A DNA stretch of 64,000 nucleotides from Candidatus Moraniibacteriota bacterium (lineage in GTDB: Bacteria > Patescibacteriota > Minisyncoccia > Moranbacterales > UBA1568), in the NCBI GenBank assembly GCA_016699975.1, contig CP064994.1, positions 193,222 to 257,221 of the forward strand. The letters run 5' to 3'. Under the pieces are notes generated by a model. The model was not told the origin of the DNA and searched no databases. It saw only the letters and a program-made list of their open reading frames with translations. Numbering within the stretch: position 1 is the first letter of the stretch; each line of letters starts with the position of its first letter. Shown here piece by piece: positions 8,603-56,451 of the stretch. Made by a program: the position numbers and the translations under genes.

Positions 8603-8855
8603 GAAATTGGGAGAGCTCTTGAGGAGGATTCCACTGTTTGGTACGGAGACGATTGGAAAATTCTTTGGACAAAGAGGAGAGCTTTGACGCTATGTTTGCC
8701 GCGCAATTTTTCCCGTATTTCACCGTAAACGGAAGTGGTCATTGAGAGACAGCGCTCGTCTCTCAAGGAATCTGAAAGAGAGGATGCATGAAATCCCTCC
8801 TTCGTTTGGAATAAAGGAAAGAGATGTTCGGACTGAGTTTGTTCTTCTTGTTTTT

Positions 8856-11800
8856 ATGAATCAGTGTCGATTGTTTCGTGGGTGGTTCTGGAGAGGAGTT
8901 CTTCTCGCCACATTTTTTGGCACCTCGTTTTCGTGTGCGTTTGCGGCGAATGAGCAAACGGTTCGGGTTATTGGCGGGCCCGTCTCTCTTTCCGAGTTGT
9001 GGGGAGGAGCGCTCAATACTGGTTCGTTAGCCGAGTGGGGACAAGGAATCGCTCTCCACCGAATGGAAACCGATCGTGAAAACCTCACGCTTCTTTCGGG
9101 GGGAACGCTTTCGTTTTCCTTTGCTCCCGATAAGCCGACAGCATTTCTTCGGGGAGGTATTTTTTCTGGGACGACGGTTGTCGGCTCGTGGGCGGAAAGT
9201 TTGGAAAGGCGAGATGTCTGCGATGCCACGCCGGCAAATTTTTCTGCGGGCGAGAAAGAATATTCGTTTGCACTCTGTGGGAAGAAACCATCTGTTTCAT
9301 TGCAATCGAGCGATGAAAATATTGTCAGTTGCTCCGGCATGTCGTGCGTGGCACATCAGACGGGCTCTGTTCGGATCACCGCTACTATTGCGCCTACACA
9401 GACGGTGCTGTGGGCGAAGCAGAATACCGAAACCAACTGGCAAAGAGCGGGAACAGTAACACTCTCCGAAGGTGTATTGTCGTGGCCAGTGAGTGTGGCA
9501 TCTCCGCCCACGCTTTCTTTCTCCATGAAGGAAACAAATCCGCTCCCGTTTGGATCGTCGGCGACACTTGTATGGTCAGCGGAGAATGCGGTTCGCTGTG
9601 AAGCATCGGGCGCGTGGCAGGGCACCCGAGAGCTTCAGAGTGGGGGATTCTCGACGGGTCCGATATTCGCTCGGCGCGATTACGGACTCCGATGTTGGGG
9701 GTCGGGAGATGATACAGTTGAGAAAACAGTGAGCGTTTTGGTTGGTTCGCCAACGCGGGGCCCAGTTGTCACGCTGACCGCGGGTTCCACGCTTATTCCT
9801 TATGGCAGCGATACTATTTTGTCTTGGTCGTCCGAAAATGCCGACGTGTGTCAGGCAACGGGCGCCTGGGTAAATCCTGGTCCTGGAACACGGGCTCCAA
9901 CCGGCTCTCAGAGTACCGGCAATCTTCGAAGTGATAAAACCTATATTATTGAGTGTTACGGTTCGGGTGGTTCGCAGGCGAAACAGATAACGGTGCATGT
10001 CATTCCTCCGTCGTCCAAGCCGTCCATACAAACATTTTCGGCGAGCCCGGTGTCCGTCGTGTACAACAAGTCGACGACGCTTTCGTGGACGACGCAGAGC
10101 GCTGCTTCTTGTCGGGCGTATGCCGATCCAGTTCGGAGCGATTGGGATGGCACACGGAATATTGAGGGAAAAGAGACCATCTCTGGGCTCCTTGGTACGA
10201 CGCGATTTTTTCTGGAGTGTACCGGAGCTGGTGGAAAAGTGGTAAAAAGTGTCGATGTGAAAGTAGAGCCTCAGGATTTACCGCCTCCAACACTTTCCTT
10301 TTCGGCCGATGAGTCGGCGCTTCCCTATGGCGGAAGCACAGTGCTTCGTTGGGAGTCTCGCTTTGCGGATACATGTCGTGCGAGTCTCGACTGGTCTGGA
10401 GAGAAAGAGAGAAATGGTTCATTCTCTCAAAATATCGGCCCGCTTTCTACTTCAAAACGATACCAACTCTTCTGTGAGAATGCAGCGGGATCGGTCACGG
10501 CGCTTGTTCAAGTATTCGTGGGCGATCCGACGGGTCAGGTTCGAGTATCGCTTTCCGCGGATCAGAATAAGGTGAGTTTGGGAGGGAGAACTACCGTTCG
10601 GTGGACGACGGAGAATGCTTCGACATGCATCTTAAACAAATACCAAAGCGGTACTTCTCAAATTGTTTCGAGAGAATTGGTGGGAAGCGCGAGTACAGGA
10701 ACGCTCACTTCGTCGATATACTATACGCTCACGTGTTCCAATAAGCTCGGTATCGCTTCGGCTTCTGAACCGGTTGTAATCAATCTTTCTCCTGGAGGAA
10801 CATTTTCGGCGCGCCCGCTCATTTCTTTCCAGCGAGACGCAGGATATATTTCTTATAATACGCCGACCACATTGCGGTGGAAGGCGGAGTATGCAGATTT
10901 TTGTGAAGCGTCTTCCAATGCCGATACCCCTCTTGAAAACTGGAACGGCCGAAAGGATATTTCAGGAGTGTCTTCGACTGGAAATCTCATTGGCACGACC
11001 CGATTTACCCTCACATGCCATGGTTCCGGGGGGACAAGCAGTGCTTCGGTGACGGCGACGGTTGGAGATCCGTCGCAGACAGGACCCTCTCTCAAATTTT
11101 GGGCGGATTCATTTACAGTAAATCCGGGCGAGTCGACGACGCTTCGCTGGGAATCGACCGATGCGACGCGCTGCAGCGCTTCTGCTGGATGGTCGGGCTC
11201 CAAAGGAACAAATTCTGGTCAAGTTTACGCGGAAAAAACTCGAAATCTTACAGAAACAACTACCTTTCTTCTTTCCTGTTCGAGCCCAGGCGGAGGTGTT
11301 TCTCTGTCAGTCACTATTTTTGTCGGCTCTTCGGTTGTCGCGCCGAGTCTTAGTTTGTGGGCTGATGCGGCTGTTGTTAATCCCGGTGAGTCGACGATTC
11401 TCCGGTGGAGTTCCTCGTCCGCAACTTCTTGCCGCGCCTTTTCAGATCCAGAATCTCCTCTATGGAGCGGGGAAATGAGCTTTGCAGGCGCGCGAAGAAC
11501 AGGGCCCCTTACGGGAGATCCTGCCGCGGTTCCTCCGCGCCTTACTCAGACCTATCGATTGGTCTGCGAGGGGCCCGGTGGAGAGGTGTCTACCCAAACA
11601 ACTATTGGTATCGGTGTTGCTTCTGGAATCGGGCCCGAAATTACCAATTTCTCGGCCGATGCGTTTGTGATTCCTTTTGATACCGCTCCTACCCTTAGGC
11701 TCTCGAGCAACAATGCGGATGCCTGTTGTCTTACAACTGACACTCCGGATGCGTGTTGGGACAGTACGAGAACACAGTGGATGGAATTGCCGAGTACGAA

Positions 11801-12395
11801 CGGAACCTTTTCGGGACCGCAGGGAATTCTTCCTCTTCGAAATGAAGCGAAGTATCAAGTTGTGTGCCGGAATGCCTCGCTCCCGGGGATACGAGCCGTC
11901 TCACCGCCCATCTCAATTGATGTCGGGAAACTCCTCCTGTGTCCCGCGACTCCTCCTGCGAATCGCGTGAGTGTGGGAGACACGATTCAGCTCAGTGCTC
12001 ATTACACAACAGATCCCTCTGCTACTTGTTTGTCGGGAGATCGGGGAGTCGATGTTACGAGCGGAGCGACATGGGAAGTGATGTCCGGAAATGAACGGCT
12101 TTCTCTCGAAGCACAAAAAGGTCTTTTTCGCGGCGTTCGCGTGGGAATCGCTCGGGTAAGGGTGAGCTATCTTCCAACTGTTGCCGTAGAAACATTCCGA
12201 TCAGAAGCGGATATATTGGTTTTCGAGTCGCGCGAATGCTATCGCTGTGATTCGGAGACATCTCGCTGTGGTGCGTTTTGGAATCCGAGTACCGATACTC
12301 CGCCCACCTGCCCCACTGAACCGGACGTTTTTAGTTCGCTCTCACTGTGCCGTGTTTCTTGCTTTAAGGATCGCTGGGAGGAAGTTGCGCCTTGA
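8856..12395 (+). CDS. Large secreted protein with about 10 tandem ~90-aa Ig-like repeats, each with a conserved Cys pair, plus a C-terminal Big_2-like domain and a Cys-rich tail
   Basis: Signal peptide MNQCRLFRGWFWRGVLLATFFGTSFSCAFA; repeat consensus TLxWxSxxAxxCxASxxWSGxxxxxGxxSTGxLxxxxxYxLxCxGxGG recurs throughout; ORF 8742..12395 with the likely start at 8856. Confidence 0.8.
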   Translation: MNQCRLFRGWFWRGVLLATFFGTSFSCAFAANEQTVRVIGGPVSLSELWGGALNTGSLAEWGQGIALHRMETDRENLTLLSGGTLSFSFAPDKPTAFLRGGIFSGTTVVGSWAESLERRDVCDATPANFSAGEKEYSFALCGKKPSVSLQSSDENIVSCSGMSCVAHQTGSVRITATIAPTQTVLWAKQNTETNWQRAGTVTLSEGVLSWPVSVASPPTLSFSMKETNPLPFGSSATLVWSAENAVRCEASGAWQGTRELQSGGFSTGPIFARRDYGLRCWGSGDDTVEKTVSVLVGSPTRGPVVTLTAGSTLIPYGSDTILSWSSENADVCQATGAWVNPGPGTRAPTGSQSTGNLRSDKTYIIECYGSGGSQAKQITVHVIPPSSKPSIQTFSASPVSVVYNKSTTLSWTTQSAASCRAYADPVRSDWDGTRNIEGKETISGLLGTTRFFLECTGAGGKVVKSVDVKVEPQDLPPPTLSFSADESALPYGGSTVLRWESRFADTCRASLDWSGEKERNGSFSQNIGPLSTSKRYQLFCENAAGSVTALVQVFVGDPTGQVRVSLSADQNKVSLGGRTTVRWTTENASTCILNKYQSGTSQIVSRELVGSASTGTLTSSIYYTLTCSNKLGIASASEPVVINLSPGGTFSARPLISFQRDAGYISYNTPTTLRWKAEYADFCEASSNADTPLENWNGRKDISGVSSTGNLIGTTRFTLTCHGSGGTSSASVTATVGDPSQTGPSLKFWADSFTVNPGESTTLRWESTDATRCSASAGWSGSKGTNSGQVYAEKTRNLTETTTFLLSCSSPGGGVSLSVTIFVGSSVVAPSLSLWADAAVVNPGESTILRWSSSSATSCRAFSDPESPLWSGEMSFAGARRTGPLTGDPAAVPPRLTQTYRLVCEGPGGEVSTQTTIGIGVASGIGPEITNFSADAFVIPFDTAPTLRLSSNNADACCLTTDTPDACWDSTRTQWMELPSTNGTFSGPQGILPLRNEAKYQVVCRNASLPGIRAVSPPISIDVGKLLLCPATPPANRVSVGDTIQLSAHYTTDPSATCLSGDRGVDVTSGATWEVMSGNERLSLEAQKGLFRGVRVGIARVRVSYLPTVAVETFRSEADILVFESRECYRCDSETSRCGAFWNPSTDTPPTCPTEPDVFSSLSLCRVSCFKDRWEEVAP

Positions 12396-28929: not shown

Positions 28930-29001
28930 TCCGGCGTAGCTCAGCGGTAGAGCGAGGGACTGTTAATCCCCAGGTCGCAGGTTCGAATCCTGCCGCCGGA
29001 G
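28930..29001 (+). tRNA. tRNA-Asn (anticodon GTT)
   Basis: Acceptor TCCGGCG/CGCCGGA, D-arm GCTC/GAGC, anticodon loop CTGTTAA, T-arm GCAGGTTCGAATCCTGC, G73. Confidence 0.85.
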
Positions 29002-29115
29002 CATCATAGGACTCTGAGCATATTCTGCCCAAAGTTTTGTTTTATCAGAGCCAAAACCGAGAGGTTCTAGGTGAAACCGTCTTTTTATTTTATATAAGCC
29101 ACTAATAATAAAAAA

Positions 29116-29640: not shown

Positions 29641-30652
29641 ACTGTTAAAATTGAGTTATCCTAAAAACAAACATAAAACCATGATAAACATCCAGCGAGT
29701 ATTGAAGAATCCAAGGGCAATGTCAGCATTAACAGGTGCAACAGCAACGGAATTCAAGCAGCTTCTTCCTGATTTTATCAAAACGTGGGAAAGTTCAAAA
29801 CGTTATCAACACAGACGAGATGCTGGAGTCAGAAAAATCGGAGCAGGCAGAAAGGGTTTTCTAAAATCCATGGAAACAAAACTGTTCTACGTCCTTTTTT
29901 ACTACAAATGTTATCCAACCTATGACCTTCTCAGTATCATTTATGATTGCAATCGCTCCAATGCTTGCAGACGACAATTTGAGTTAGGAAATCTTTTGGA
30001 AAAAACCTTGGGCAGAAAGCGAGTTCTTCCAGAAAGGAAAATGAGAAAACTCGAAGAGTTTTTCAAAGCTTTTCCGGAGGCGCGAGAAGTCTTCATTGAT
30101 GGCACGGAACGTCCCATTCAGCGTTCAAAAGACAAGGAAAAACAGGAAGAAAACTACTCCGGCAAGAAAAAGAAACATACCCGAAAAAACATTGTTATTA
30201 CTGACAAGAAAAAACGAATTGGTTTTTTGAGTAAGACTGAAGGAGGAAAAAATCATGATTTTCCGATGCTCAAAAGATACGCTTCTCCTGACAATATGCC
30301 AACCAAAATCAAGAAACATTTGGATTTGGGATTCAAGGGGTTTCAAAATCAGTTTCCTGGTCACAAAGTATCAATGCCCAAGAGAAAACCAAGGACAAAA
30401 GAACTCACTGAATTTTCCAAAGAACAAAACAAGAAAAAATCTGCAATCAGAGTCTTGGTTGAAAATGCTCTTGCCGGTGTTAAAAGACTCAGAATTGTTA
30501 CGGATGTATTTCGCAACAAGAAAAAGAATTTCGACGATCAAGCAATGTTCATTTCCTGCGGACTCTGGAATTACCATTTATCAGTAAAATGGTAATTCCA
30601 GAATCTTCATGGAGATTCTTGTTAATTTAAGTTGCTATTAAGCAACAGGTCT
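29618..30652 (+). mobile_element. IS5/Harbinger-like insertion sequence (DDE_Tnp_4 transposase) with 24-bp imperfect terminal inverted repeats and a 3-bp ATT direct repeat
   Basis: Left end agacctgttgccttttaagcaac vs right end gttgctattaagcaacaggtct; flanked by att on both sides. Confidence 0.75.
29651..30595 (+). CDS. DDE_Tnp_4-family transposase
   Basis: N-terminal HTH_Tnp_4-like LTGATATEFKQLL...GAGRKGFL; catalytic YSGKKKKHTRKNIVITDKKKRIGFLSKTEGGKNHDFPMLK. Confidence 0.8.
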   Translation: MSYPKNKHKTMINIQRVLKNPRAMSALTGATATEFKQLLPDFIKTWESSKRYQHRRDAGVRKIGAGRKGFLKSMETKLFYVLFYYKCYPTYDLLSIIYDCNRSNACRRQFELGNLLEKTLGRKRVLPERKMRKLEEFFKAFPEAREVFIDGTERPIQRSKDKEKQEENYSGKKKKHTRKNIVITDKKKRIGFLSKTEGGKNHDFPMLKRYASPDNMPTKIKKHLDLGFKGFQNQFPGHKVSMPKRKPRTKELTEFSKEQNKKKSAIRVLVENALAGVKRLRIVTDVFRNKKKNFDDQAMFISCGLWNYHLSVKW

Positions 30653-31475: not shown

Positions 31476-32561
31476 GGTGAGTTCAAGAATTTAATGCCCC
31501 TTTTCCAGTACCCTGGCAAAAACTTCATTCGGCGTCAAATAGTTAAGCGCTTTCCTCGGTCGATTGTTGAGTTTGTCCTGAACTGACCGAACTTCTTTTT
31601 GGGAAATTTTATCAAACGGGCATTTCTTCGGAAAATACTCTCGTAACAATCCATTCAAGTTTTCCACACCTCCTTTCTGCCAACTTTTGTAGGTATCGCA
31701 GAAGTAGGAAGGAAGAGAAAGTTTTGTTTCGTTTCTCCGTGCAAAACATTCTCCGTTCCATTATCTCTCGTAATACTTCTCCTCAATTGCTGCGGAAGCC
31801 GAGAGAAATGTCCCTGTATCGCTCGTTCGCTTTCGACCGCTGTTTTGTTTGGAACTTTCTTTAATCGGCATAGCTTCATTTTTCGCTCGTACTGTACCGA
31901 GAGTACTGACTTCTGTTTTGAGAATATCACGGAATCGGTTTCCCAGTCTCCAAAGTGTGTACGCTTGGTAATGACCGCGGGTCTTTCGTGAATGGGTATT
32001 CTATCCGGAATCGTCTCTTTTCGCGGTTTTCGAGAGAACTTTGGTCGTCTCCGCTTCTGTTTTCGTCGCAGATGTTTGTACCATCCGCCGACCCTTCCTT
32101 CTCCGCGGTAAATGTAATCATAGATGGATTCGTAACTTATCGAGGTATCCGTACACGAGGAAAGATTTTTCGGAGGAGATGTTTTCAACCGGCCGGCTAT
32201 CTGCTCCGGTGAATGTCCCTTCAGGAGTTCGCTTTCGACAAACTTTTTCAGTTTCTCGTTTTGCCATTTTCCAGTTTTCTTTTGTTGGTATTTTTCTTTC
32301 GTCTTTCCGCATACGCTTCAGCTCGGATGGCAACATAGGGAAGGTGCGGACTCGAATTTCTTCGTATCTCTCGCTTGATGACGGAGTAATCTCTTCCAAG
32401 TTTCTCCGCGATCCATGTTTTCTTTTTCTTCATGCGGAGAAAGCTTTCGATTCGCTCTCGTTCAAAGAAGGTTATGGACGTTCCTTTTGGCATATTCATA
32501 GCGTTTTTGGAAGTTAACGCCGGAGTATACCAGAAAAGGGGCTTCGGGGTTTGAATTCACC
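31476..32561 (-). mobile_element. IS30-family insertion sequence, copy 2 (inverted, 1086 bp); no target duplication; transposase degraded
   Basis: Near-identical to copy 1 with the same terminal repeats; the fragments (ORFs 32248..32499, 32118..32399, 31655..32188) carry HTH MPKGTSITFFERERIESF...REIRRN and the core ...GDWETDSVIF...SITRDNGTEN; flanks gag / gtg do not match. Confidence 0.85.
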
Positions 32562-33614
32562 GTGATTTATTTACCATCATTTAAAAAGCCTGTAACAATC
32601 AAGCCAGTAGCTCTAAATGAACTTGGAGAACAGCTAAGTATTTCTATTCCAGATGTGAGGGTGCCAAAGATTGAATTAGAAGAAAAAGAGCAAGAAAAGA
32701 TTGTAAACGATACGATTAAGTTTGTGTTTGGTACCTCACCTAAAGATGCTCTATCTAAAAGTGAATTTGAGAAGAGGTGTTTGATTTTTGCAAGGCATAT
32801 CGGAGAAAAATGGGAAGAGATACTGACAAGTTCTCATCATCCTATCGAGGAAAAACTTCCTGAAGTTATAGCAAAGATGGAAGCGGAGAGTTTTCGACTA
32901 CTGGTTCTATCTGGAGTTTTAGCGATCTATGGTACCGAGGAGCAAATAAAAGTGTTTGTAGAAACTCTTTCAGAGGTTTTGAAGTTAGCAAAAGGTAAAT
33001 CAGGGATTGTTGCAATTATTGCGGTTCCTGAGGTTATTGTTCTTTTGACGATATATATATTTACCTTGCTCGCATTAGCAACTCGAGACTTTAGTCGGTT
33101 AAAGGTATTTACCAATACCAGAGTCTATGGTTGGGTATACGATGGTGAGCCACCAAAAATCCTAGCCCTGAATCACGTTCACTACACCAGCGCATTAACC
33201 GGACATGCCGATAAAGTTGCGGACTTTGTTAGATCTAGACTTGAATCTATGAAGTGGTTAAAGTCTCTACACCCAAGACTGGAGAATATTCAAGATGTCC
33301 AAATACAAGCCAGTTTTCTTCTTAGTATGCTTATGCGCCACAATGATATTAGGACTTGGCCTGATTTTGGAAGATGGTACGCTCAAAGAATCACCTCTAT
33401 CGTAGAAAGGATAAAATATGATGATCAATATGTTAAACAAATAGCCAGTCTTTTTGATGTTCAATCCAAGGATTTGAGGTTGAAATTTTCGGAGTATCTT
33501 ACCGACTTTCGAAAGGCTGGGATGGCTCAGTATCACTGGGAATCCATCAGTCAGAAAGCACTCTTTACACCCGAGGAACTTACAAAGATGAAAGAGGAGA
33601 ACTTAGGAGATTAA
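32562..33614 (+). CDS. Hypothetical protein (350 aa, AT-rich), probably 5'-truncated by IS30 copy 2
   Basis: The ORF opens exactly at the IS boundary; first ATG is about 107 codons in; internal TM segment; no recognised domain. Confidence 0.45.
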   Translation: MIYLPSFKKPVTIKPVALNELGEQLSISIPDVRVPKIELEEKEQEKIVNDTIKFVFGTSPKDALSKSEFEKRCLIFARHIGEKWEEILTSSHHPIEEKLPEVIAKMEAESFRLLVLSGVLAIYGTEEQIKVFVETLSEVLKLAKGKSGIVAIIAVPEVIVLLTIYIFTLLALATRDFSRLKVFTNTRVYGWVYDGEPPKILALNHVHYTSALTGHADKVADFVRSRLESMKWLKSLHPRLENIQDVQIQASFLLSMLMRHNDIRTWPDFGRWYAQRITSIVERIKYDDQYVKQIASLFDVQSKDLRLKFSEYLTDFRKAGMAQYHWESISQKALFTPEELTKMKEENLGD

Positions 33615-33909
33615 GACATAATTTATGTGGTCTTTGGATTTTACTTTTGGAAAAACGAGCTAAAATTGAAACAAAAAATCGGTTAGGTAGGCGTCTAAAC
33701 TAGTCTAATTTCATGGACAACGCTTTCGTTTTTGGAGATGGAGGGGTAATTACTGGAGAAGATTGTTGGGCGAGTGAGAGGAAATAGTGAGGGATTTTAA
33801 CCGCGAGGATTTTGGGGCGACCCTTGCATAATATCAAGCTCCATGTTATCGTCCGCTGTCTGGTTCCTTGACAATTCATGTTCAACAATTCACCTATCGG
33901 AGGTGCAAA

Positions 33910-34741
33910 GTGGCTACTGTAGAAAAGAGTATTCGTCCCATGATATTCAGTGCTCCGGCTATTGGGGAGCGTGAAACGGTTTTTCCCTTGGCTCGAGAGC
34001 TGGTTCGTATTCAAGTTCCGGAAGCACTGATCAAAGATATCCTCGAAGCCTGCGATGGTCAGAGAACTTTGGATATGGTGCTGGAATTGCTTGAATCTAA
34101 GTGGGATCGCGATACATTAGAGAGCTTCTTGCGGCACTTGCACGAGAAAGGGGTGCTGTATGATAGCTCAAACTTGAGCGGTTTCGTTTGGCCGTTCGTT
34201 TCAAATCCGAGTCACTTCTCAAAAGCGGTGACTGATCTTCAGGTAGCTGAGATGGTTGAGCGAGCGTGCTTGAGGCAACGGAATCTTCCATCAAATATGT
34301 TTTTCACGGTGAAGGAGTATTATCCTTTCCAACGATTGGTTTCCAATCGGAAATCGGAACGATCCTTTTCAGGGAAAGTGATTAGCATGGAGCGTGTTGT
34401 TCAAATGCTGTGGGCGGGATATGGAGTTATTGCCGAATCTCAATCAGGAGTGGGCTTTGACCGTCATACCGTTCCGTCGGCGGGAGCATTGTATCCGTGG
34501 CGTGGTGATTGTGAATGGGTCGTTTAGTGTAGGGGAAGAGAAATATGGCAACAGGTCGCTCCTCTATGTTCCGCTTGAAGCGGGGCATGTCGCGCAGAAC
34601 ATTCTTTTGGAAGCGACAGAGTGCGGTGTTGCGACGGTGGAGATTGGCGGATTTCTCGAAGAGCCGATGCGAGACGCATTACGATTGCCGACGGAATTCG
34701 TTCCGTTGACCACCGTGGTGTTTGGCGATTCTGCCGGTGGT
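33910..34741 (+). CDS. SagB-type dehydrogenase (McbC-like nitroreductase-fold, TOMM 'B' protein), frame changed near 34508-34515
   Basis: SERSFSGKVIS...TVPSAGALYP hallmark motif, followed in the next frame by VVIVNGSFSVGEEKYGNRSLLYVPLEAGHVAQNILLEA...GGFLEEP; GGAGG RBS then GTG at 33910. Confidence 0.8.
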
Positions 34742-35970
34742 GGGGATCATGGACATCACCTGCCATGCGGATTCGAAGTTTGGTGGGCATATCCAAAAGC
34801 AAATGGATACGTGTTGCCGTTCAATCTCGTGTTTGCTCGATTGGCAAAAGCTTCCGGTGGAAGCGAAGAGTGGTCATGCGGGCGTTCTTCCGATCCTTTC
34901 GTGGCGTATGAAAAAGCGACTGCGGAAGTGCGGGAGTGGGCGGCATGCAGTCTTCCGCATAACCTTGTGAAGTCGAATATCGGATCGCTTGCGAGTGCGG
35001 TAGCGCCGGACAGCATAGTGGCGTTTCATCCCGATCAGTACGCTTCGCCGAGTTTTCCGTTCTTTCCCTTGAACAAGAAGGGGTCTACGAATGGAAGGAA
35101 GCCACAGACGTGGTAACGTGTGAAATACATTTCATTCTGGCTGACTGTATCTACTTCCCCTACTATCCGGAGTATCCGCGCTGTGCAAGTGCGAATTCTT
35201 CCGGAGCGGCTGCGTATCCCACAAGGATTGGCGCAGTTCGGCGCGGGGTGTTGGAGTTGATCGAGCGAGATGCCTTCATGATCGTGTGGCTCAACCGTTT
35301 GGTGATGCCAACGATCGCTGGTGGTAGTTTTCCGGATGATGTTCGGTGTCGTATTCGCAACTTGGAAGAAGCGGGTTTTGAAGTGATCATCAAGGATGCG
35401 ACACTTGATTTGGCTCCGGTTGTGTTGGTATTCGCGCAGAGCGAAGACTTGCATTACACAACGTGCTCCGCTTGCTGTTCTTTCAATGTTGACAGGGCGC
35501 TGAATCATGCTTTACTGGAGGTCGAAGCGGCGGTGTATTGTCGTTTGGCATTCGGCTCTTCAGAGCCGATGCTTCCCGAAGATGTGCGGATGACGCAGGA
35601 TCACGGGAAGCTGTACGAGCAAGAAGCTTTTTTCCGACAAGCGGATTTTCTGAAAGAGTCTCGGCTCTTGAAAGACTTGAGTGAAGTCGGCGAGGGCGCT
35701 TGCTTTCACTGGGAAATGCTGTTGGTGCGTATCGCGGAACAAGGAAGGAACGTTCTGGTGGTCGATCTTGAAAATCCGCATGTGGACGGTATTCAGTCAA
35801 ATCTGTTCATAGTGAAAACTTTTGTGACAGGATTGGTGCCGATAAGCTTCGGGTACAGAGAAGAGCCGTGCGGGATGCAAAGAATCTACGAAGTCCCTGT
35901 GACTTTTGGATTCCGTTCCGACCCGATTCGTTACGACGAACTCAACAGGTTCCCGCATCTTTACACATAG
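34742..35970 (+). CDS. YcaO cyclodehydratase domain protein (TOMM 'D' protein), frame changed near 35045-35075; contiguous with the SagB reading frame with no intervening stop
   Basis: N-part SCGRSSDPFVAYEKATAEVREWAACS; core SSGAAAYPTRIGAVRRGVLELIERDAFMIVWLNRL (YcaO ExxERD motif). Confidence 0.8.
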
Positions 35971-35993
35971 CTTGCGAAAGGGGGTGATGATCC

Positions 35994-36158
35994 ATGCAAG
36001 CAGGAAAAGCCGCGAAGGGGCAATCCTTCGAATGGTGCGTCACGGTTGAACCGCGGCGTTCGGGTAGAGGGCACGAAGCACTCTCGAGCAAAGGGAGCAG
36101 CAGCTCCGGTTCGTGTCAGCGTTCCAACAGCTGTCGGGCAAGCGCGATTCAACGCTAA
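35994..36158 (+). CDS. Candidate TOMM/RiPP precursor peptide (54 aa): MQAGKAAKGQSFEWCVTVEPRRSGRGHEALSSKGSSSSGSCQRSNSCRASAIQR
   Basis: Not in the ORF track because it is under 60 aa; RBS aaggggg 9 nt upstream; Ser/Cys/Gly-rich C-terminal core; immediately downstream of YcaO and followed by two strong hairpins. Confidence 0.5.
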   Translation: MQAGKAAKGQSFEWCVTVEPRRSGRGHEALSSKGSSSSGSCQRSNSCRASAIQR

Positions 36159-36174
36159 TCGCAACGGTTCGGCA

Positions 36175-36232
36175 GACTAAAGCGCTTTAGTCTCAACAAG
36201 GGGTCTTGGTCATGATGATCACGACCCCCCTT
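36175..36232. terminator. Tandem hairpins (20-bp perfect palindrome agactaaagcgctttagtct, then ggggtc...gacccc + T-run) between the convergent precursor and peptidase genes
   Basis: Read directly from the sequence. Confidence 0.7.
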
Positions 36233-37078
36233 TCATTTCCCAAATTCTGATTTTTCGTAAATTTTTTTTGGTGTGAGCTGGACGATATCGTTCCATGATG
36301 TGTCAGGATGTCGCTTTCGATACGCTTCAACCATTTGGTAGCCGATCGCATAGCCTGCCCAGAGAGGGTATTCTTTTCCTTCCAAGAAGACAGGATAGTA
36401 CATCTTTGTATTGCGAAACCGCTTCTTGAATTTTTCATACCACACGAGTGCTTCTTTGAACGGGAGGGCTTGCGAGGGCATATGTGCCTTCACGCCGAAG
36501 AGAAAGGAAACAAAACTTTCCGCTACTCCCTCAAAGACGAGGTCGTCCAAAAGATTTTTTCTCTCGTAGTGGTTATCCATTACCGTGTGCATGAACTCGT
36601 GACAGATCGTTTCGGTGAGCGCTTCTTTCCATCGCTCAGTTTCCTGCGGTGAAACATACAAGAGCAGGGTATTTTTGTAAGGAGTATAGCCCGAGACGCC
36701 ACCCATTTTGTCTTTGACGAAGGTGCTAAAGGTTGGGAAAAGAAATATATTGGTTGGTGAGGTGGAAACGTTTTTGTGACAAAGTTGGAGAGCTTCTTTT
36801 ATGGTGCGTAGCAATTCTGATTCCGAAATACTGAACGCTTGATGTTGAGTATTGGCATTCTCGAAGTCGGGAATATTATACGTGAGATTATCGTGGAGGT
36901 GTTTCTTTTTGGTGAATCCGGCGTAACCGATTGCTTTTGAGTAGGGAACTTCTTTGACGAAATTTCCAATGAGAGTCTCGTTATCGAACGCGGGATCGTA
37001 TTTTGTGAAAAGTTGAAGCGTTCCAATGTTACCCGATTTTCCCTTTTTCTGTATGTCAGTAATGGTGTGTGCTTGCAT
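36233..37078 (-). CDS. Putative zinc metallopeptidase (HExxH; DUF2268-like)
   Basis: TICHEFMHTV motif; 281 aa; AT-rich. Confidence 0.6.
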   Translation of the reverse strand: MQAHTITDIQKKGKSGNIGTLQLFTKYDPAFDNETLIGNFVKEVPYSKAIGYAGFTKKKHLHDNLTYNIPDFENANTQHQAFSISESELLRTIKEALQLCHKNVSTSPTNIFLFPTFSTFVKDKMGGVSGYTPYKNTLLLYVSPQETERWKEALTETICHEFMHTVMDNHYERKNLLDDLVFEGVAESFVSFLFGVKAHMPSQALPFKEALVWYEKFKKRFRNTKMYYPVFLEGKEYPLWAGYAIGYQMVEAYRKRHPDTSWNDIVQLTPKKIYEKSEFGK

Positions 37079-37182
37079 AGGGTTTTGGCAATAGATGGTT
37101 TATCCTTATAATTTCTTGAGGAAAGACTAGCACTTTTTCGGAGAAGTGTATATCGAAGAAGTCTTCTTCGGAACACATTTTT

Positions 37183-38865
37183 CTAGAAAGCAAAGATGAG
37201 AAGCTTACTTATTTGAGCCAAAGTTCCTTCCGGATACGGTATCGCTTGCTCCCATTCAAAGGTTCGGAAGCTGTCCCGCCAAGCGAGCACTAGTGAAGAA
37301 CTGGAGTATGAAAGCTCCAGTTTTTCTTTATCTGAAGGGTTTTTCAGAGGTTCGAACCTTTGAGAAATAGAATTTACCTGGAATGAGAACCCTTGAAGCT
37401 TTAAAATCGGATTTGTGGCTTCTATCAAGAACTTTCTTTCTTTGATAAAGAGGTTCGAACCTAGGCCATTTATGATGAGTTTTTTGGTTTCCTCATTTCC
37501 TTCCTGAAATCTATCTTTAATATCTTCAGCAATACTTAAAGTTTTCTCTAATCGATCAATCCATGTTTCTGAGGCCTTCTCAGAATCAGCTAGTATCTTT
37601 TTGAGTCTATCCCTGTCTTGTAAGATGGCTTCTCGCTTAGGCGTAAAAACCGCTTCAGGGATCTCGTTACTTAGTCGGAGCTCCAGTAACCTATCCAGTT
37701 TATCTTCCACGCTCTTTAAGGCTCGTTTCTGGCTTTCTAGAAGTCTTTGCTGCTCTTCAATGCTTGATGCCTCTTTGCTCCTAAAATAGCGTACAGCCCA
37801 CTCCTTAAAGCTTGCAGGGATGCTTATGGATTCAAGTAAACTGCCAATTTGGCTTTCTAGTTCCTTTTCCTCAATTACCTTTTTAGGGCAATCGGGATTC
37901 TTCTTCCCCGTACAGTGATAGTAAGTATAAAAGTGAACATTGCCATTCTTATTTCTCTTCACTTTATTTTCAGCCGTGATCATGGCGCCACAGCTACCGC
38001 ATTGAATAGTTCCTCTATAGGTGAAATCGTATTTATCTGGCCGAGTAGTGCCTCTCTTTCCTAGTATCGTTTGAATCCTTAAGAACTCTGCTTTGGTGAT
38101 TATGGGAACATGCTTCCCTGAATACCAGTTCCCGCTTCCTAGCGGATACTCAAACTCTCCGTAATAAAAAGGATTATTCAACATTGCATACCATGTACTA
38201 TTAGCGATAGGACTTCCGTTTCGATTTCTCAATCCCCATTCTTTCGTGGCTAATTGATATGCCTTCATTGGTGTGTATTCACCAGAAGCTATCCCCTTAA
38301 ACGCTTTCCTGATCACATCGAAACGTTCAGGGTCGGTAAGCACCTCCTTGTCTCCTTTGAGTTTCATCGGATTAGCGGCATACCCATAAGGGGCTACTCC
38401 AGGGAACCAGCCTCGCTCTGCCTTAGCCCGAAGTCCTCTTTTGGTATCTGTACTTAAGTCTCGGATGAACTGGTTAGCCATTCCCAGCTCCACATTCATA
38501 AGGAGTACATTGTCAGAAGGGTAGTAATCTCGGCCTTGGGTCTTTATGTTTGTGATAAAGCCCTCCTGCAACAAGTGGCTAATCATTCCGCCATCAAGGG
38601 CGTTACGAGTGAGACGGTTAATTTTCCAACAAAGAATACCATCGGCCTCTCTTTTTTGGATTTTGCTAATCATTTGATTGAAGACAGGTCTTCCAATCGC
38701 TTTTGCAGACATGGATTCAGTAAGTACCTCAATCACGTTTAGATCATACTGAGTAGCTATCTTTTGAAGCTCATGAACCTGAGATTCAATAGAGGCCATT
38801 TGCCTATCCTCGGATTCGCTCGACTTACGAGCGTAAAGAATGTATTTATTTGCTTTCTCATACAT
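37183..38865 (-). CDS. Large serine recombinase (phage-integrase type)
   Basis: N-terminal resolvase domain YARKSSESEDRQMASIESQ...R; recombinase domain; zinc ribbon CGSCGAM...YYHC; coiled-coil C-terminal region. Confidence 0.88.
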   Translation of the reverse strand: MYEKANKYILYARKSSESEDRQMASIESQVHELQKIATQYDLNVIEVLTESMSAKAIGRPVFNQMISKIQKREADGILCWKINRLTRNALDGGMISHLLQEGFITNIKTQGRDYYPSDNVLLMNVELGMANQFIRDLSTDTKRGLRAKAERGWFPGVAPYGYAANPMKLKGDKEVLTDPERFDVIRKAFKGIASGEYTPMKAYQLATKEWGLRNRNGSPIANSTWYAMLNNPFYYGEFEYPLGSGNWYSGKHVPIITKAEFLRIQTILGKRGTTRPDKYDFTYRGTIQCGSCGAMITAENKVKRNKNGNVHFYTYYHCTGKKNPDCPKKVIEEKELESQIGSLLESISIPASFKEWAVRYFRSKEASSIEEQQRLLESQKRALKSVEDKLDRLLELRLSNEIPEAVFTPKREAILQDRDRLKKILADSEKASETWIDRLEKTLSIAEDIKDRFQEGNEETKKLIINGLGSNLFIKERKFLIEATNPILKLQGFSFQVNSISQRFEPLKNPSDKEKLELSYSSSSLVLAWRDSFRTFEWEQAIPYPEGTLAQISKLLIFAF

Positions 38866-38923
38866 AAGCTAACCAATTATGTATTACAGATCCAGAATAA
38901 TCTTTTCAGTCAAAAACTGCTAT

Positions 38924-39430
38924 TTATTCAATCAGGCCTCTTTCTCTTCGGGATTTTAAGATCATCTCACCCAGCTTAGTAAAATCGAATGTATTAACTA
39001 GCTCCAGCTTCTTTTCCATTGGTTTAGGCTCAAAAATGCCTAATCTTTCCATAAAGCGGTCGTAATCATCATAGTCTCCCTCCTCAACCTTCTTTCTTCC
39101 AAGACGCATAGCCTCTAAAATTCCAAACCCATCTGCTTCTAAGACTGCATTATTCAAAAGTTGAAGTTTTTTGTAATTTTGAGAGCCAATTTTTGCGGCT
39201 GTTGCATAATCGTCTGTATCGTAAACAGCGAGGGCGCACCTTACTCGATTGCCAAAGTAGGCCTTATTCGATTTATCTAGAAAAAGGGATGTCCAAAGTT
39301 TAAATTTTTCAGATTGCGCCTGCATAAGTTTAATAGGGGAGATAGTTTTGGCTTGTTCCTTGATCTTTAAAAGTTCTCTCTTGGCCTCGTTCTGGTTCTT
39401 TACCCCGTCGATTTTTTTAGGATTAGACAT
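38924..39430 (-). CDS. Hypothetical protein
   Basis: 168-aa ORF co-oriented with the recombinase. Confidence 0.45.
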   Translation of the reverse strand: MSNPKKIDGVKNQNEAKRELLKIKEQAKTISPIKLMQAQSEKFKLWTSLFLDKSNKAYFGNRVRCALAVYDTDDYATAAKIGSQNYKKLQLLNNAVLEADGFGILEAMRLGRKKVEEGDYDDYDRFMERLGIFEPKPMEKKLELVNTFDFTKLGEMILKSRRERGLIE

Positions 39431-39767
39431 ATTAGTTAACTTCTCGGACTTTATAAGTTTCTCTAAGAAGATTTAAAAATTGCTCAGTATACCTGGCAGC
39501 CTCTACTTCTGATAGCTTCATTCCAAATTCCTTTAGGAATAAGGCCTGAATTTCTTCTATTTCTTTAGGTGTAAACATAGAACTGTAGGCACTTACCTAC
39601 AGTCTAGAGTTCTTTCTTTTAAGTTCAGAGCACATTATGTGTACTACATATCTTGCCGTTTTTTGGCTTCACGAGAGACAATTCTTCTAATTTCTCCCAT
39701 ATAGAACTTCTCATTAAAATACTTTTTTACCAACTCTCGAATTTCAACTTCTGGTAAATGACGGTTT

Positions 39768-40097: not shown

Positions 40098-40163
40098 ATC
40101 GAATAGAGCAAATAACCGGAGAGTAATGCTAATACTTTCAAAGTTCCTTATGGGTATTCTCTC

Positions 40164-40984: not shown

Positions 40985-41170
40985 ATGATCTCTACAAACG
41001 AAGCTAGAAGTCTCCTACCGAATGGCGCCTCCTACTCCGATCAAGAAGTTGAGAAGATCCTTGAAGACCTTTATTTTCTAGGGAACCTTTCGTTGAAGGC
41101 GTACCTTGATGAGCGTTCTAGTTCTCACGAACTTTTATTAAAAAGCCTTCGAAATCCTCCTGCAAGTTAA
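40985..41170 (+). CDS. Hypothetical small protein
   Basis: 61-aa ORF with RBS. Confidence 0.3.
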   Translation: MISTNEARSLLPNGASYSDQEVEKILEDLYFLGNLSLKAYLDERSSSHELLLKSLRNPPAS

Positions 41171-44100
41171 ACTCGAATCTTTCGAAAACATGTATAAGTA
41201 TCCTTTCCATGAGGTAGTTTTCTTGATTTTTTTGGCTACCTTCTTTGCTAAGCCAATCAGGTGGATTTTGTAAGAACTTTTTCATTAGTTCTGATTCTGG
41301 AAGAAATTCTTGAACATTTATTTTAAAGATATCAATTTTAAGTGATTCACTGTCCGTAGCCTCTAAGGGAGAGTATTGAGTTAAGATCCCCAGCCTATTT
41401 TTATTGAGAACAAGAATATAGGAATCTCTTTTATTATCGTAAAGCTCGTAAACGGGTATATCCTTATCTTTAACCTTATAAAAGCCGTTTATTTCCTTAG
41501 GAAGACTGCCTTCAGCGATGTTTAAACGCCATTTAGGAGTGTATTTTTCATTCTGGTTTGCTTCAAAGAAGGATCTCCAGCTGGCATTATTTACTGCAAT
41601 AATAATTGCCTCACCAGTGGTGGAAATATCCGCTATTTTTTGATCCAAGTCAGCAGCACTTATGACTGCGGAGCGATCCTTAATTTTCTTTAACAGATCC
41701 GTGTTTTCTCCTATTACCATGTTCCTGCCAAACTCAAATCCTTCTTCCATTCCTAAAACATGAACGTGCCAGGATACGGAATCATCGAAGAAACCGGCTT
41801 TATCAAATAAAGTGTTTACTCCTAGACTTTTGAGATCACCTGAATATGGTTCGTTGCTCTTATCTTGAAACAGACTGTAGTGGCGGAGAATACTTCGAAG
41901 TTGATCATTATCGTAAAAATCTTTCACTACGCTTTTTTTAAAAATCGCTACCTTTTTCGGGGAAATTCTTAATCTTCTTTTTTTATCTATTTCTTCATTT
42001 TCTTGGCTTTCTTTAGCACGTACTAGAAGATCCTTGAAGCTATCTACTTTCTCTAATGCTTTCCCATCCAGTAAAAAGCTCCAGTTACTAGGATTGGCTT
42101 TCATGTCTTCTAGAGTACCCAATAAACTTCTTGTCCCTTCAGCAAGGTATGCCAAATCTCTACTGTGAGGCAGGTTAATGCCCGCTATTTCATCGGGAGT
42201 TTTCTCCTTTAAGATTTCTAATGAATATACTGCATAAAGCCTTTCAAGTTTTGAAAGAATATCAATCGTATGTGCTTCACCTTCTTCTTGTCCTTCCATT
42301 TCCCAGTTATCCCAGCCCCAGAAGCTTTCTACTGCAAAGTCATGAACAACGGAGAAGAGCTTAGTAAAATCATTAATTTCGCTAGGAAGTTTTCTTTTTA
42401 CTTCATCATAAAATTCTTTCACCTTTTCGTTATCTTTGTCTTGTTCTAACTCGTATAAAATCCAGCTAGCTACACCAAAGAACATCTCCTTTCTCTTTCC
42501 ATCAAGATAATCGTAAAGTTTCTCATCCTCATCAGAATCAGATCGGCCAGAATCCCGAATATCTTTGAATAACTTTGAGGTAACAAGCAGAAACTTTTGA
42601 AAGTTCAAAGTATCTCTATTGCTAAATGAAGCTTTTAATAAGCTTTGAAAAATCTTCAATATTTCCTCTGCAAAAAGTTTTATCTCTTCCTTTGAGTAGT
42701 TCTTATCTTCGAGCTTTTCTTCCAAAGGATGTCTTGATAGGTCATTGAGATATCTCCATATCCTGTCGAAAATGAAGGCTGCTCTCGTCTCATCATTTTT
42801 TCTTTTGGCCTCTATAGCAATGTGGTAAAAGCGTAGGGGATAATATGCAAACTCTTGAAATATTAGGTGGTCTTTATGGTCAATCGCCTCTTGAAGAAGC
42901 CGGATGGGTAAGTACATTACGTAGCGATTAATATCCTTACTTACAGAACTTAACCCATTTTCAATAACTTCGCTTATGTCTTTTGAGATCCAGGAAACTG
43001 ACTTAAAGCCCCCAAACGCTATTTCAAACCTCATATCGCTAGCTTGCTTTGCAGAAAATCCTCCTCCGTGCTGTTCCAAATAAGAGTAAAACTCCTTGAT
43101 TAACTCGATGTAGAAATCGGTGATTTCTCCCAACTCCTTAGTCTTCTGTTGCTGAATAAATTCATAACAACGAAGTTTAATCTCAGAAATCTCATTTTGG
43201 ATCTCATCATAGTCAGTGCTATTTCGTTTGATCACGAACAGCTTATTGGCCATTTCTGAGACTTTTGCTTTTTCTGACGGCGATTTAATTAAATCCTTGT
43301 GTATCCATAGGAGATTTCCTTCGCCTTTCTCAAGATATGATAAGTATCGTGGAACAATCCAGAAATAGGGATCTCTTCCTTTGTATTCCTCATCAGTGTT
43401 TGAAACCTCATCTGAGTTTTTGAGAAGAGCGCTGTAGTCTTCAGGTAATCTTTTCTGAAATCTTAAAAGAAAACTATTTAGCTTATTTAGTTTAAAATCG
43501 TAGAATGTACCAGTTTTAAGTGTTTTTATTGGAATAAATCTATTTTTATTCACAGGAGAAAAAGGGCTGACTTCAACTACCTTTTTGAACCTTTTAAGTT
43601 TTTTGTTGAGGACGCCATCTCCTATTAACTGGGTTACTTCGTTATCTAATAAATTAAGAAACCGGATCTTAATAGCATGTAAAAACTCCTTCCTTTCTTT
43701 TTTAAAGCTAAAATTATTCGAAAATAGGTTTAAAGTCTGAAATAGAGAGTAGATTGTTCCCGCAGCTATAAGCACCAAAGGAATAACCCCGAAGAAATTA
43801 ATGTTTCCCCACCAAATGTAGTACAGGAAGTAAAGAACCTCAGCTATTATTAAAAGTGGGAAAAATTTACTCCTTTTCAATAAAATTCTTCCCCTGTAAG
43901 GATTCTCGTTAGCTATCTCTTGGGCAATGAAAAATGCCAATCCAATTAAAACTGCGCCTATTCCTGCATGGATCGTGATTAAGTTTTGAAAATGGTTTTC
44001 TTCTCGTAATATCTCGGAGAGGTTGCTGAATTTGTTTTCGATCCAATAAGATAGATTTTCACAGCATATATTATTGAACTGATGAAGAATTCCATTAATC

Positions 44101-44369
44101 CAATTGGAATGGGAGAGCACAAAGAAAAAGGCCAATACCAAGACAACTGCAAGAATTTCCCACCCTGATAACCATAAAAGTGTAAGCTTTGAGTTTATAA
44201 GTTCCTTATGATCTTTTCTTAACTTTTTCTCTTCTTTGACTAAGCTAAGTAAGGAAGGTTCTCTTTCCCAAGAAAAGACTTTTAGGATCGCTTTTAAAAC
44301 TTGTACTGTCTTCAATTCTTCTTTCATTGTCGTGTAGTCAAACAAGGGGTAATCAGGGCATTTTCTCAA
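41118..44369 (-). CDS. Large hypothetical protein (1083 aa) with an N-terminal 4-5 TM region and a long soluble domain
   Basis: Uninterrupted 3.25-kb ORF in the AT-rich island; no motif I can assign. Confidence 0.7.
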   Translation of the reverse strand: MRKCPDYPLFDYTTMKEELKTVQVLKAILKVFSWEREPSLLSLVKEEKKLRKDHKELINSKLTLLWLSGWEILAVVLVLAFFFVLSHSNWINGILHQFNNICCENLSYWIENKFSNLSEILREENHFQNLITIHAGIGAVLIGLAFFIAQEIANENPYRGRILLKRSKFFPLLIIAEVLYFLYYIWWGNINFFGVIPLVLIAAGTIYSLFQTLNLFSNNFSFKKERKEFLHAIKIRFLNLLDNEVTQLIGDGVLNKKLKRFKKVVEVSPFSPVNKNRFIPIKTLKTGTFYDFKLNKLNSFLLRFQKRLPEDYSALLKNSDEVSNTDEEYKGRDPYFWIVPRYLSYLEKGEGNLLWIHKDLIKSPSEKAKVSEMANKLFVIKRNSTDYDEIQNEISEIKLRCYEFIQQQKTKELGEITDFYIELIKEFYSYLEQHGGGFSAKQASDMRFEIAFGGFKSVSWISKDISEVIENGLSSVSKDINRYVMYLPIRLLQEAIDHKDHLIFQEFAYYPLRFYHIAIEAKRKNDETRAAFIFDRIWRYLNDLSRHPLEEKLEDKNYSKEEIKLFAEEILKIFQSLLKASFSNRDTLNFQKFLLVTSKLFKDIRDSGRSDSDEDEKLYDYLDGKRKEMFFGVASWILYELEQDKDNEKVKEFYDEVKRKLPSEINDFTKLFSVVHDFAVESFWGWDNWEMEGQEEGEAHTIDILSKLERLYAVYSLEILKEKTPDEIAGINLPHSRDLAYLAEGTRSLLGTLEDMKANPSNWSFLLDGKALEKVDSFKDLLVRAKESQENEEIDKKRRLRISPKKVAIFKKSVVKDFYDNDQLRSILRHYSLFQDKSNEPYSGDLKSLGVNTLFDKAGFFDDSVSWHVHVLGMEEGFEFGRNMVIGENTDLLKKIKDRSAVISAADLDQKIADISTTGEAIIIAVNNASWRSFFEANQNEKYTPKWRLNIAEGSLPKEINGFYKVKDKDIPVYELYDNKRDSYILVLNKNRLGILTQYSPLEATDSESLKIDIFKINVQEFLPESELMKKFLQNPPDWLSKEGSQKNQENYLMERILIHVFERFEFNLQEDFEGFLIKVREN

Positions 44370-54564: not shown

Positions 54565-56451
54565 ATGAAGAGAGAAATATTCCGTTACCGCCTTCTTTTT
54601 GGAATCACGGCGGTGATAGTATTTTTTCTTACTCCTTCTTCATCTTTTGCTGCGCCTTCCATTGCTTCTGTTTCGGGGACCTTCTCTCCTGGAGAAATGA
54701 TCACGATTTCGGGAAGCGGTTTTGGAACCAAGGCTCGTCCCGGGCCGATTCTCTGGGATACTTTCGAAAGCGGAGCAGCGGGCGATGTTGTTGCGAACGA
54801 GACGGGTGGTGCTCAACCCTTTCTTCACGAAGGTGACCTTGCCTCATACGGCACTTGGATACTTGCCGGTCGCGGTGCAGTTTCGGGAAATCAAGTCGTT
54901 TTAAATGGAGCTGCGCCAAAGCCAGGGTCAACGCTTCATGCACGCGCCACGTTTTTGAGCGATCAATATACCGGTCTCGGTCTCTTCGTTCCGTTCTCCC
55001 GATTTGCAACTGGGCAGGACCTCTATATTTCCTATGCGTATCGATTTACTCGAACCGGTGCCAGCTTTCCTCGACGAACTTCGGCTTTCTCTCTCGTTCA
55101 CGAAGCCGGAGCGGAAGCTCTTTCTTTTGGGACTGCATACGGATCGTGCGAAACGGGCGGATACCGACAGCGTGTGGAATCTCTCGGGACCGAATACCCC
55201 CTTAATACTGATGGGACTTCGATAAATGGAGAGTGGGTTCGTTTTGAACAATCGCTTCAGCAGTCGGGTGATGGAGCAGCAAATGGCAGCTGGGTGAGTA
55301 CGATCTATCGCTCTTCGCCGCCTTCAAAGGATATGCGCGTTTCACTTCGGCAAATTTTGAGAACGTCGTCGGCAATTCCTTCCGCGATTGTTCTTGGAGC
55401 GGTGCGGTATGAGATGTGCGGGAATGATCCGGGAACGATCGATATCGATGATGTGTATATCGATACGACGCCTGCTCGTGTTGAGCTCTGCGATACTCCA
55501 ACGTGGGCGGCGCGCAACGAGTGTGAGGCGGGACTCCCATCTTTGTGGAACGAGGAACGTATCAATCTCACGCTTCGGGGAGGAAGTTTTTCTTCGGGAA
55601 CAAGGTATCTTTACGTTATCGACGCCTCAGGTGCGGTGAATACGGTTGGCTTTCCCATTTCTTTCGGAGAGACTCGGCTTGCCGACGAGACCGCGCCTCT
55701 TCCTCCAAGCGCTCTTCTTGCGTCTCCTCGTGCTTCGTCGGTTTCGTTGTCGTGGATGCCCTCAACTGACCGCGATATTTCGGGGCAGGTGGTTTCGGGC
55801 TTTGATCATTATAGTTTGGAGCGATGCGAGGGGAGTTCGTGCGAAAATTTTTCGGAGATCTCTTCGGTTTCTTCTGACTCTTTCGTGGATCGCAGTCGTG
55901 CGCCGAGCACCGCCTATGCGTATCGAATACGGGCGATTGATCGCGCAGGAAATGCTTCGTCATGGTCGGATATTGTTCGAGTGACGACGCTTCCTCTTTC
56001 GTTTGTTTCGTGTGAGACGGTCAATCAAACGAATTTTTCGGAGTCACTCTACAGCGGATACGGTGCTCCGTACGATGTTTTTTCTCCTCAGACGATCCTT
56101 CTTTCGACGAGTTGCCAAGAAGGAAATATTCATACGGTCAAGCCGACGGTCGGCGTTCCGGGAGATATGGCGAGAATTGTCTATACGACGGGGTATCGCT
56201 ACGATCCGACGGTCTGTGCATGGCAGCCGTTTTCTCTTGACTGTACGGGTGTTCAAAACGGAAAGTGGTGCCAAGGTTTTGCGACGACCACCCTCACCAA
56301 TGAAACTCTTTTTACTGCTACCGCCTCGACGCCTGCTTATGTCGCGGGGATGACCTGCTCTGTACAAAATGGCTCCTGGAAATGCGGATGTCGTGATGCG
56401 AATTGTTCCACCTTTTCGTGGCAAATACAAGGAGCGAAAAAAGAATATTAG
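54565..56451 (+). CDS. Secreted protein with an IPT/TIG-like and a fibronectin type III domain and a Cys-rich C-terminus
   Basis: Signal peptide; SIASVSGTFSPGEMITISGSGFG (IPT); LSWMPSTDRD...YAYRIRAIDRAGNASSWS (FN3). Confidence 0.65.
   Translation: MKREIFRYRLLFGITAVIVFFLTPSSSFAAPSIASVSGTFSPGEMITISGSGFGTKARPGPILWDTFESGAAGDVVANETGGAQPFLHEGDLASYGTWILAGRGAVSGNQVVLNGAAPKPGSTLHARATFLSDQYTGLGLFVPFSRFATGQDLYISYAYRFTRTGASFPRRTSAFSLVHEAGAEALSFGTAYGSCETGGYRQRVESLGTEYPLNTDGTSINGEWVRFEQSLQQSGDGAANGSWVSTIYRSSPPSKDMRVSLRQILRTSSAIPSAIVLGAVRYEMCGNDPGTIDIDDVYIDTTPARVELCDTPTWAARNECEAGLPSLWNEERINLTLRGGSFSSGTRYLYVIDASGAVNTVGFPISFGETRLADETAPLPPSALLASPRASSVSLSWMPSTDRDISGQVVSGFDHYSLERCEGSSCENFSEISSVSSDSFVDRSRAPSTAYAYRIRAIDRAGNASSWSDIVRVTTLPLSFVSCETVNQTNFSESLYSGYGAPYDVFSPQTILLSTSCQEGNIHTVKPTVGVPGDMARIVYTTGYRYDPTVCAWQPFSLDCTGVQNGKWCQGFATTTLTNETLFTATASTPAYVAGMTCSVQNGSWKCGCRDANCSTFSWQIQGAKKEY

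Follow-up and report, generated by a model that had tools for sequence, protein, structure and literature searches.

A conserved 54-codon gene beside a disrupted RRE–dehydrogenase–YcaO gene in a Candidatus Moraniibacteriota genome probably encodes a LAP-type precursor peptide

The window analysed here, a 64,000-nucleotide stretch of the genome of a Candidatus Moraniibacteriota bacterium, carries a compact module of a predicted azole synthetase gene, a short gene directly 3′ of it and a convergent metallopeptidase gene, with the following features:

33922..35970, + strand: disrupted gene for a predicted single-chain azole synthetase (RRE + SagB-type dehydrogenase + YcaO cyclodehydratase)
33922..34341, + strand: N-terminal RiPP recognition element (RRE) of that enzyme, winged-helix, PqqD-like, intact in the window
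35977..35988, + strand: Shine-Dalgarno (SD) site AAAGGGGGTGAT, 5 nt upstream of the ATG
35994..36158, + strand: probable precursor peptide gene, 54 aa, ATG start, product MQAGKAAKGQSFEWCVTVEPRRSGRGHEALSSKGSSSSGSCQRSNSCRASAIQR
35994..36080, + strand: putative leader, aa 1-29, from the alignment
36027..36059, + strand: recognition motif F12-R22, FEWCVTVEPRR, within the putative leader
36081..36155, + strand: putative core, aa 30-54, LSSKGSSSSGSCQRSNSCRASAIQR, from the alignment
35961..36164, − strand: antisense ORF, 67 aa, from the ORF listing
36174..36193, no strand: hairpin 1, a perfect 20-bp palindrome in the convergent intergenic region
36200..36228, no strand: hairpin 2, GC-rich, 14-nt arms, 86% complementary
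36233..37078, − strand: gene for a DUF2268 HExxH zinc metallopeptidase, 281 aa, HEFMH at residue 160 (Pfam PF10026, E = 1.3e-20)

An initial annotation, made from the sequence alone, had proposed the 54-aa Ser/Cys/Gly-rich ORF as a candidate YcaO precursor peptide, and all the features that it listed are present. The ORF begins with the ATG at 35994, 23 nt past the stop of the YcaO ORF (35110..35970) and on the same strand; the G-run of the SD-like site ends 9 nt before the ATG, as had been noted; and the reported 20-bp perfect palindrome follows at 36174..36193. The second GC hairpin is also present, but the T-run ascribed to it is weak in the window (CCTTTCATTT), and a consensus terminator scan of the window did not call it. 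Both hairpins lie outside the 54-aa ORF and are kept in relatives with compensatory substitutions, hairpin 1 in loci L121, L088, L086 and L002 (L numbers denote related loci); in L088, L007, L086 and L123 the sequence TCTTTTT stands right after the stem of hairpin 2. Hairpin 2 is likely the intrinsic terminator of an enzyme–peptide operon, its T-run having degraded in the window.

The ORF is not significant by its length, because chance alone yields many ORFs of 40-70 aa, and a 16-kb stretch contains 115 of 40 aa or more; its significance comes from conservation, not from size. The window peptide had no match in Pfam, NCBIfam or PHROG, nor did the antisense 67-aa ORF, and the exact peptide sequence was not found in a public gene-call collection, where the DUF2268 protein of the window occurs only on a contig of 1.1 kb. 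Assignment to a known precursor family (NHLP, Nif11-type, heterocycloanthracin or another NCBIfam/Pfam model) was rejected for want of any Pfam, NCBIfam or PHROG match, and an RNA element was rejected since 35700..36400 gave no Rfam match at E <= 1.

A first protein search with the YcaO fragment returned few relatives. In the two closest contigs, independently called genes of 54 and 56 aa lie directly 3′ of the YcaO gene, and their products are clearly homologous. More than 110 further loci came from scans of genome and metagenome collections, and in most of them tblastn and a profile HMM located a small ORF; in L001, L002, L121, L122 and L123, gene finders had independently called the orthologous small ORF directly after the enzyme gene. 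The peptide profile matched (E < 1e-4) in 72 of the 102 loci with enough flanking sequence, a count that partly includes training sequences since the profile was trained on peptides of the same loci, and the family comprises 53 distinct peptides. All 72 matches, from a search of 28,297 stop-to-stop segments, lie between −300 and +1300 nt from the enzyme stop, a strict positional specificity that is independent of the overlap with the training set. The arrangement seen in the window, with the peptide gene directly 3′ of the enzyme on the same strand and the DUF2268 gene convergent, recurs in 38 of the 72; in the other 34 the peptide gene runs opposite to the enzyme and follows a co-directional DUF2268 gene. 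The remaining 30 assessable loci, which have more distant enzymes, gave no match to the peptide profile. Public gene calls include about 31-41 members of the family, all listed as 'hypothetical protein' or unnamed, and 41 database homologues showed no Pfam domain; the family is unnamed and has no Pfam or NCBIfam model.

Peptide identity to the window is 94% for L085, 89% for P0022/L121 and 67-74% for L088, L086 and L001, and the length of 54 codons is kept exactly in L085, L121, L088, L007, L086 and L001. Across DNA of 65-95% identity, the plus frame is uninterrupted, with a constant length of 54-56 codons, and changes mostly synonymously. Third codon positions dominate the differences among the closest relatives (23/40 and 30/47, for example), the codon varies while the amino acid is constant in 26 of 55 codon columns, and pN is 0.14-0.24 against a pS of 0.61-0.85 (pN/pS ~0.2). 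The canonical SD sequence AAAGGAGGTGAT is kept at unchanged spacing in L121, L088, L007, L086, L123, L001 and L002. The 54-aa ORF is thus conserved, under purifying selection in the plus frame and always adjoining the enzyme gene.

The homologues share the motif P-[KR]-[KR]-F-[ST]-W-x-[VI]-x-V-x-P-[KR] in their N-terminal part; their C-termini are variable and Ser/Cys/Gly-rich. Together with the occurrence of the small ORF beside most of the assessable enzymes, this conserved leader and these C-termini support the proposal that the gene encodes the precursor peptide. Several subfamilies have a conserved Ala just before the Ser-rich segment in the alignment (…HEA/LSSKGSSSS…, …VTA/MKSKSSS…, …GKFA/G…, the slash following the Ala), which suggests that LSSKGSSSSGSCQRSNSCRASAIQR is the core and that the leader/core boundary lies after this residue. 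So delimited, the core of the window peptide has 10 Ser and 2 Cys among its 25 residues, and the three substitutions that distinguish the peptide from that of L085 all fall before the predicted core, in the N-terminal half. Some relatives have Cys-free cores, e.g. MKSSDSSGQSAQSKD.

Upstream of the peptide gene, three overlapping plus-strand ORFs (33868..34527, 34394..35116 and 35110..35970) are fragments of one gene. The initial annotation had named the gene YcaO; the domain is indeed there (Pfam YcaO, E = 1e-29, in 35110..35970), but this ORF is the C-terminal fragment of an RRE–dehydrogenase–YcaO fusion, broken by two deletions, and not a plain YcaO. Intact orthologues are single proteins of ~735 aa with three domains, an RRE, a SagB-type dehydrogenase and a SagD/LynD-type YcaO, and public data hold at least 147 clusters of the enzyme at 90% identity. 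The best structural and sequence relatives of the YcaO domain are the heterocyclases LynD, TruD, MusD and McbD, the first three of which align to the enzyme through their YcaO halves only. Scores against NCBIfam SagD and SagB are below the curated cut-offs, and there is a weak match to the thioamidating YcaO family TIGR03266. An invariant K-Y pair lies in …EKYGNRS…, which we take to be the azoline dehydrogenase motif. Searches with Pfam, NCBIfam and PDB profiles found no E1-like/ThiF-like domain in the enzyme, and the conserved neighbours include no gene of this type. The fused RRE, for which leader binding is predicted, apparently takes over leader recognition from that partner. Of two long antisense ORFs inside the enzyme gene, 35035..35508 (−) is open in 39 homologous loci and 35483..35800 (−) in 7; in all likelihood neither is a gene, both arising from the codon composition of the sense strand.

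When all neighbourhoods are compared, the enzyme gene (123 loci) and the DUF2268 gene (72 loci) prove to be the only large conserved genes, and we therefore regard enzyme, precursor and metallopeptidase as the functional unit. Among the genes conserved beside the enzyme in related loci there is no transporter or immunity gene, and TfuA was not found either. Every one of the 66 DUF2268 homologues with 200 aa or more contains HExxH, and no hydrophobic N-terminal stretch was seen by eye in the window protein. The DUF2268 protein, as the product of the third conserved gene of the module, is a candidate leader peptidase.

The window and its closest intact relative, L085, share only ~3.3 kb, corresponding to the three-gene module, at 88-91% nucleotide identity over 33820..37136. 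Relative to L085, the enzyme gene of the window has lost 167 bp, out of frame and flanked by microhomology, at ~34499 in the dehydrogenase core, removing nitroreductase profile positions ~40-94, and a further 1 bp at ~35069 in a TTT run of the YcaO domain (CCCTTTG to CCCTTG). Together the lesions amount to 168 bp, which puts the downstream sequence back in frame. Intact in the window are the RRE segment, the gene for the peptide with its SD site, and the DUF2268 gene. Judged from these lesions, the enzyme as assembled is inactive, so that the peptide is probably not matured in this organism; the cluster in the window is probably a relic, recently inactivated, in which the peptide gene is still intact.

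Most enzyme copies among the related loci are intact. Lesions elsewhere include a TAG for Trp in L123 (L123:3765), a TAG for Tyr in L004 (L004:955), frameshifts in L007 and L003 and an internal deletion in L002; these independent events indicate that decay of the enzyme gene is recurrent. The gene is also disrupted in L037/L104 and L100, and overall it is independently disrupted, by a nonsense TAG, a frameshift or a deletion, in about one in ten related loci, the adjacent precursor ORF being intact. L058 and L062 are near-identical contigs that differ by one stop codon in the enzyme gene. Recurrent disruption could reflect loss of production at the population level, or assembly noise. An alternative genetic code or programmed recoding was rejected as the origin of the split ORFs, because the lesions differ in kind and position between loci; TAG recoding in particular was rejected, TAG being the normal stop of the intact enzyme genes in L085 and L086.

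The reading that we favour, and hold to be very probable, is that 35994..36158 is a genuine LAP/TOMM-type precursor gene of a three-gene module, most likely in an inactivated cluster that does not mature it. The greatest competition comes from the view that the cluster is fully functional, the two gaps being minority variants or errors of assembly or sequencing, and that the peptide is matured normally. Assembly errors are possible: the 1-bp lesion falls in a short T-run, the summed lesions leave the frame restored, the peptide gene, SD site, DUF2268 gene and RRE are intact, and L058 and L062 exemplify near-identical loci in which only one copy has a stop. However, the larger gap takes out nitroreductase profile positions ~40-94, the microhomology at its edges is typical of a real deletion, and the independent lesions in the five loci named above speak for recurrent decay; we consider a functional cluster unlikely.

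Less probable still is that the ORF encodes a real small protein other than an azole precursor, namely a substrate for another YcaO reaction (thioamide or amidine formation), a small regulator or an immunity factor. The sub-threshold SagD score, the weak TIGR03266 match, the lack of an E1-like partner and the Cys-free cores of some relatives would fit such a role, yet a YcaO fused to a SagB-type azoline dehydrogenase is sensible only if azolines form. The presumed azoline dehydrogenase K-Y pair, the absence of TfuA from the conserved neighbours and the kinship of the YcaO domain to heterocyclases also argue against it, and an RRE combined with a conserved leader and a variable Ser/Cys core is the signature of a RiPP precursor. 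The idea that the region is non-coding, or coding on the minus strand through the 67-aa ORF, so that the plus-strand ORF is a frame open by chance across a conserved regulatory or terminator region, draws on the abundance of chance ORFs of this size and on the want of Pfam, NCBIfam and PHROG matches for both ORFs. Against this, the region lacks an Rfam match, the hairpins lie beyond the ORF, and the plus frame is held open by synonymous-dominated change. The antisense ORF exists, as the initial annotation had recorded while judging it the poorer explanation; its frame has pN ~ pS and is interrupted by stops in L085, L086 and L001, and since the sense frame has a pN/pS of ~0.2, we rejected the antisense reading. 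With selection acting on the plus frame, the comparison of homologues already refutes this idea, whose probability is negligible.

For a LAP/TOMM-type precursor, a mechanism can be proposed from the intact relatives and from analogy with characterised azole synthetases. The RRE at the N-terminus of the enzyme would bind the leader stretch F-x-W-x-V-x-V-x-P-R/K, represented in the window by FEWCVTVEPRR. The YcaO domain, with ATP, would then cyclodehydrate Ser and Cys of the core to azolines, and the fused SagB-type FMN dehydrogenase would convert these to oxazoles and thiazoles. The leader would be removed by the convergent DUF2268 HExxH metallopeptidase, probably after the conserved Ala. The product would be an azole-modified peptide, probably a natural product of the antibiotic type, and may be bioactive.

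A minimal LAP cluster consists of a precursor, a YcaO, a dehydrogenase and usually an E1-like/ThiF-like partner, which is present 'in most cases' and needed by most azoline-forming YcaOs (PMC7136475). The present locus has the precursor, a short gene adjoining the enzyme with a conserved leader and 12 Ser/Cys in a 25-residue core, but neither an E1-like (C) nor a ThiF-like (F) partner. The three-gene module is common among the ultra-small bacteria of the candidate phyla radiation (CPR). In 93 CPR genomes (Parcubacteria/Microgenomates), Sharrar et al. (2020, mBio), using antiSMASH, predicted 110 LAP clusters that contain YcaO, nitroreductase and peptidase genes with a precursor next to the YcaO; in 89 clusters a nitroreductase adjoins the YcaO (PMC7298704). 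Compared by gene content, our locus is a cluster of this kind: YcaO, dehydrogenase of the nitroreductase type and peptidase are all encoded, and next to the YcaO is a short precursor rich in Ser and Cys. The hosts are similar too, relatives here being labelled Moranbacteria, Paceibacterota, Parcubacteria or Patescibacteria. In that report, by contrast, the genes appear as separate annotations, and the one precursor displayed, of 84 aa, is from a Microgenomates genome (PMC7298704). The single-chain RRE–dehydrogenase–YcaO enzyme lacking a partner, the identity of the peptidase as DUF2268 and the F-S-W leader family were found neither there nor elsewhere in the literature searched, and the search returned no papers on YcaO together with DUF2268.

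Microcin B17 (McbBCD), streptolysin S, plantazolicin, klebsazolicin and phazolicin differ from the present system, which has no E1-like (McbB/SagC) or ThiF-like partner. Unlike canonical LAP/TOMM systems, it carries the RRE N-terminally on the dehydrogenase, combines all activities in a single polypeptide, has no conserved export or immunity genes, and has a precursor that matches no known family. LynD, TruD and MusD are nearest to its YcaO domain in sequence and fold; LynD and TruD, however, have an E1-like domain and RRE fused before the YcaO, with the oxidase as a separate protein or domain. An RRE-like domain at the N-terminus of an azoline oxidase, as here, is shared with ThcOx and the NRPS oxidase BmdC. 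Cyanobactin-type systems make macrocycles via the PatA/PatG proteases, which are absent here.

The module lies in a low-GC stretch. From 28930 to 46000 the GC content is 36-42%, compared with ~50% elsewhere in the window, and this stretch starts right after a tRNA-Asn gene (28930..29002). The module inside it has a GC content of 49-52%. The stretch also holds large ORFs lacking Pfam matches, as well as the following:

29651..30595: DDE_Tnp_4 transposase
31655..32188, − strand: 177-aa ORF, no Pfam match, putatively transposase-like by eye
37183..38865, − strand: large serine recombinase

The low-GC stretch has the look of a genomic island or of a patchwork of mobile elements; no convincing att-like direct repeats of the tRNA-Asn that would delimit an island were found. 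Very large ORFs at 8742..12395 (1217 aa), 41118..44369 (1083 aa) and 54565..56451 (628 aa) had no Pfam match at E <= 1e-5. The window also carries housekeeping genes and DUF4012, which is common in CPR genomes.

The enzyme reaches beyond the CPR. L110, from the chromosome of a Reyranella sp., and L111 and L112, from Alphaproteobacteria/Pseudomonadota MAGs, have the same fused enzyme and the leader motif …R/KSFSWxV…, which points to spread of the module across phyla. Their cores are short and Cys-rich (e.g. …ALGCCKMEKK and …GCGGCGCK), and a DUF2268 gene was not detected in their vicinity. L085 and L088, the bins nearest to the window module, are labelled 'uncultured Bdellovibrionales', and all other close relatives have CPR labels (Moranbacteria, Paceibacterota, Parcubacteria); either the Bdellovibrionales labels are unreliable automated taxonomy or the module has moved between phyla.

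Tentatively, and with rather more doubt than confidence, we suggest that these loci form a minimal LAP subclass, in which single-chain RRE–dehydrogenase–YcaO enzymes would act without an E1-like/ThiF-like partner on precursors with the leader PKKFSWxVxVxPK and DUF2268 proteins would finish the product, Cys-free, Ser-only members giving oxazoles only. Its members would be found in CPR/Patescibacteria and in a small number of Proteobacteria. Selection against production might explain why the enzyme is repeatedly inactivated while the precursor stays intact, and the apparent decay of the cluster in the present genome tempers any claim that this organism makes the compound.

To a RiPP specialist the result will be unsurprising, and its use lies in annotation, in genome mining and possibly in enzyme engineering. 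It adds to the annotation a missed gene, the one that determines the product of the cluster, and similar peptides could be mined with the clear leader signature of the unnamed precursor family. Peptide engineers would find an attractive minimal tool in the enzyme, which would be an azole synthetase on one chain, equipped with its own RRE and lacking an E1-like partner. CPR bacteria cannot be cultured alone, and we know of no RiPP from them that has been characterised. The family thus offers an entry point to the natural products of CPR bacteria and, if the minimal LAP subclass is real, may provide the first experimentally tractable CPR RiPP.
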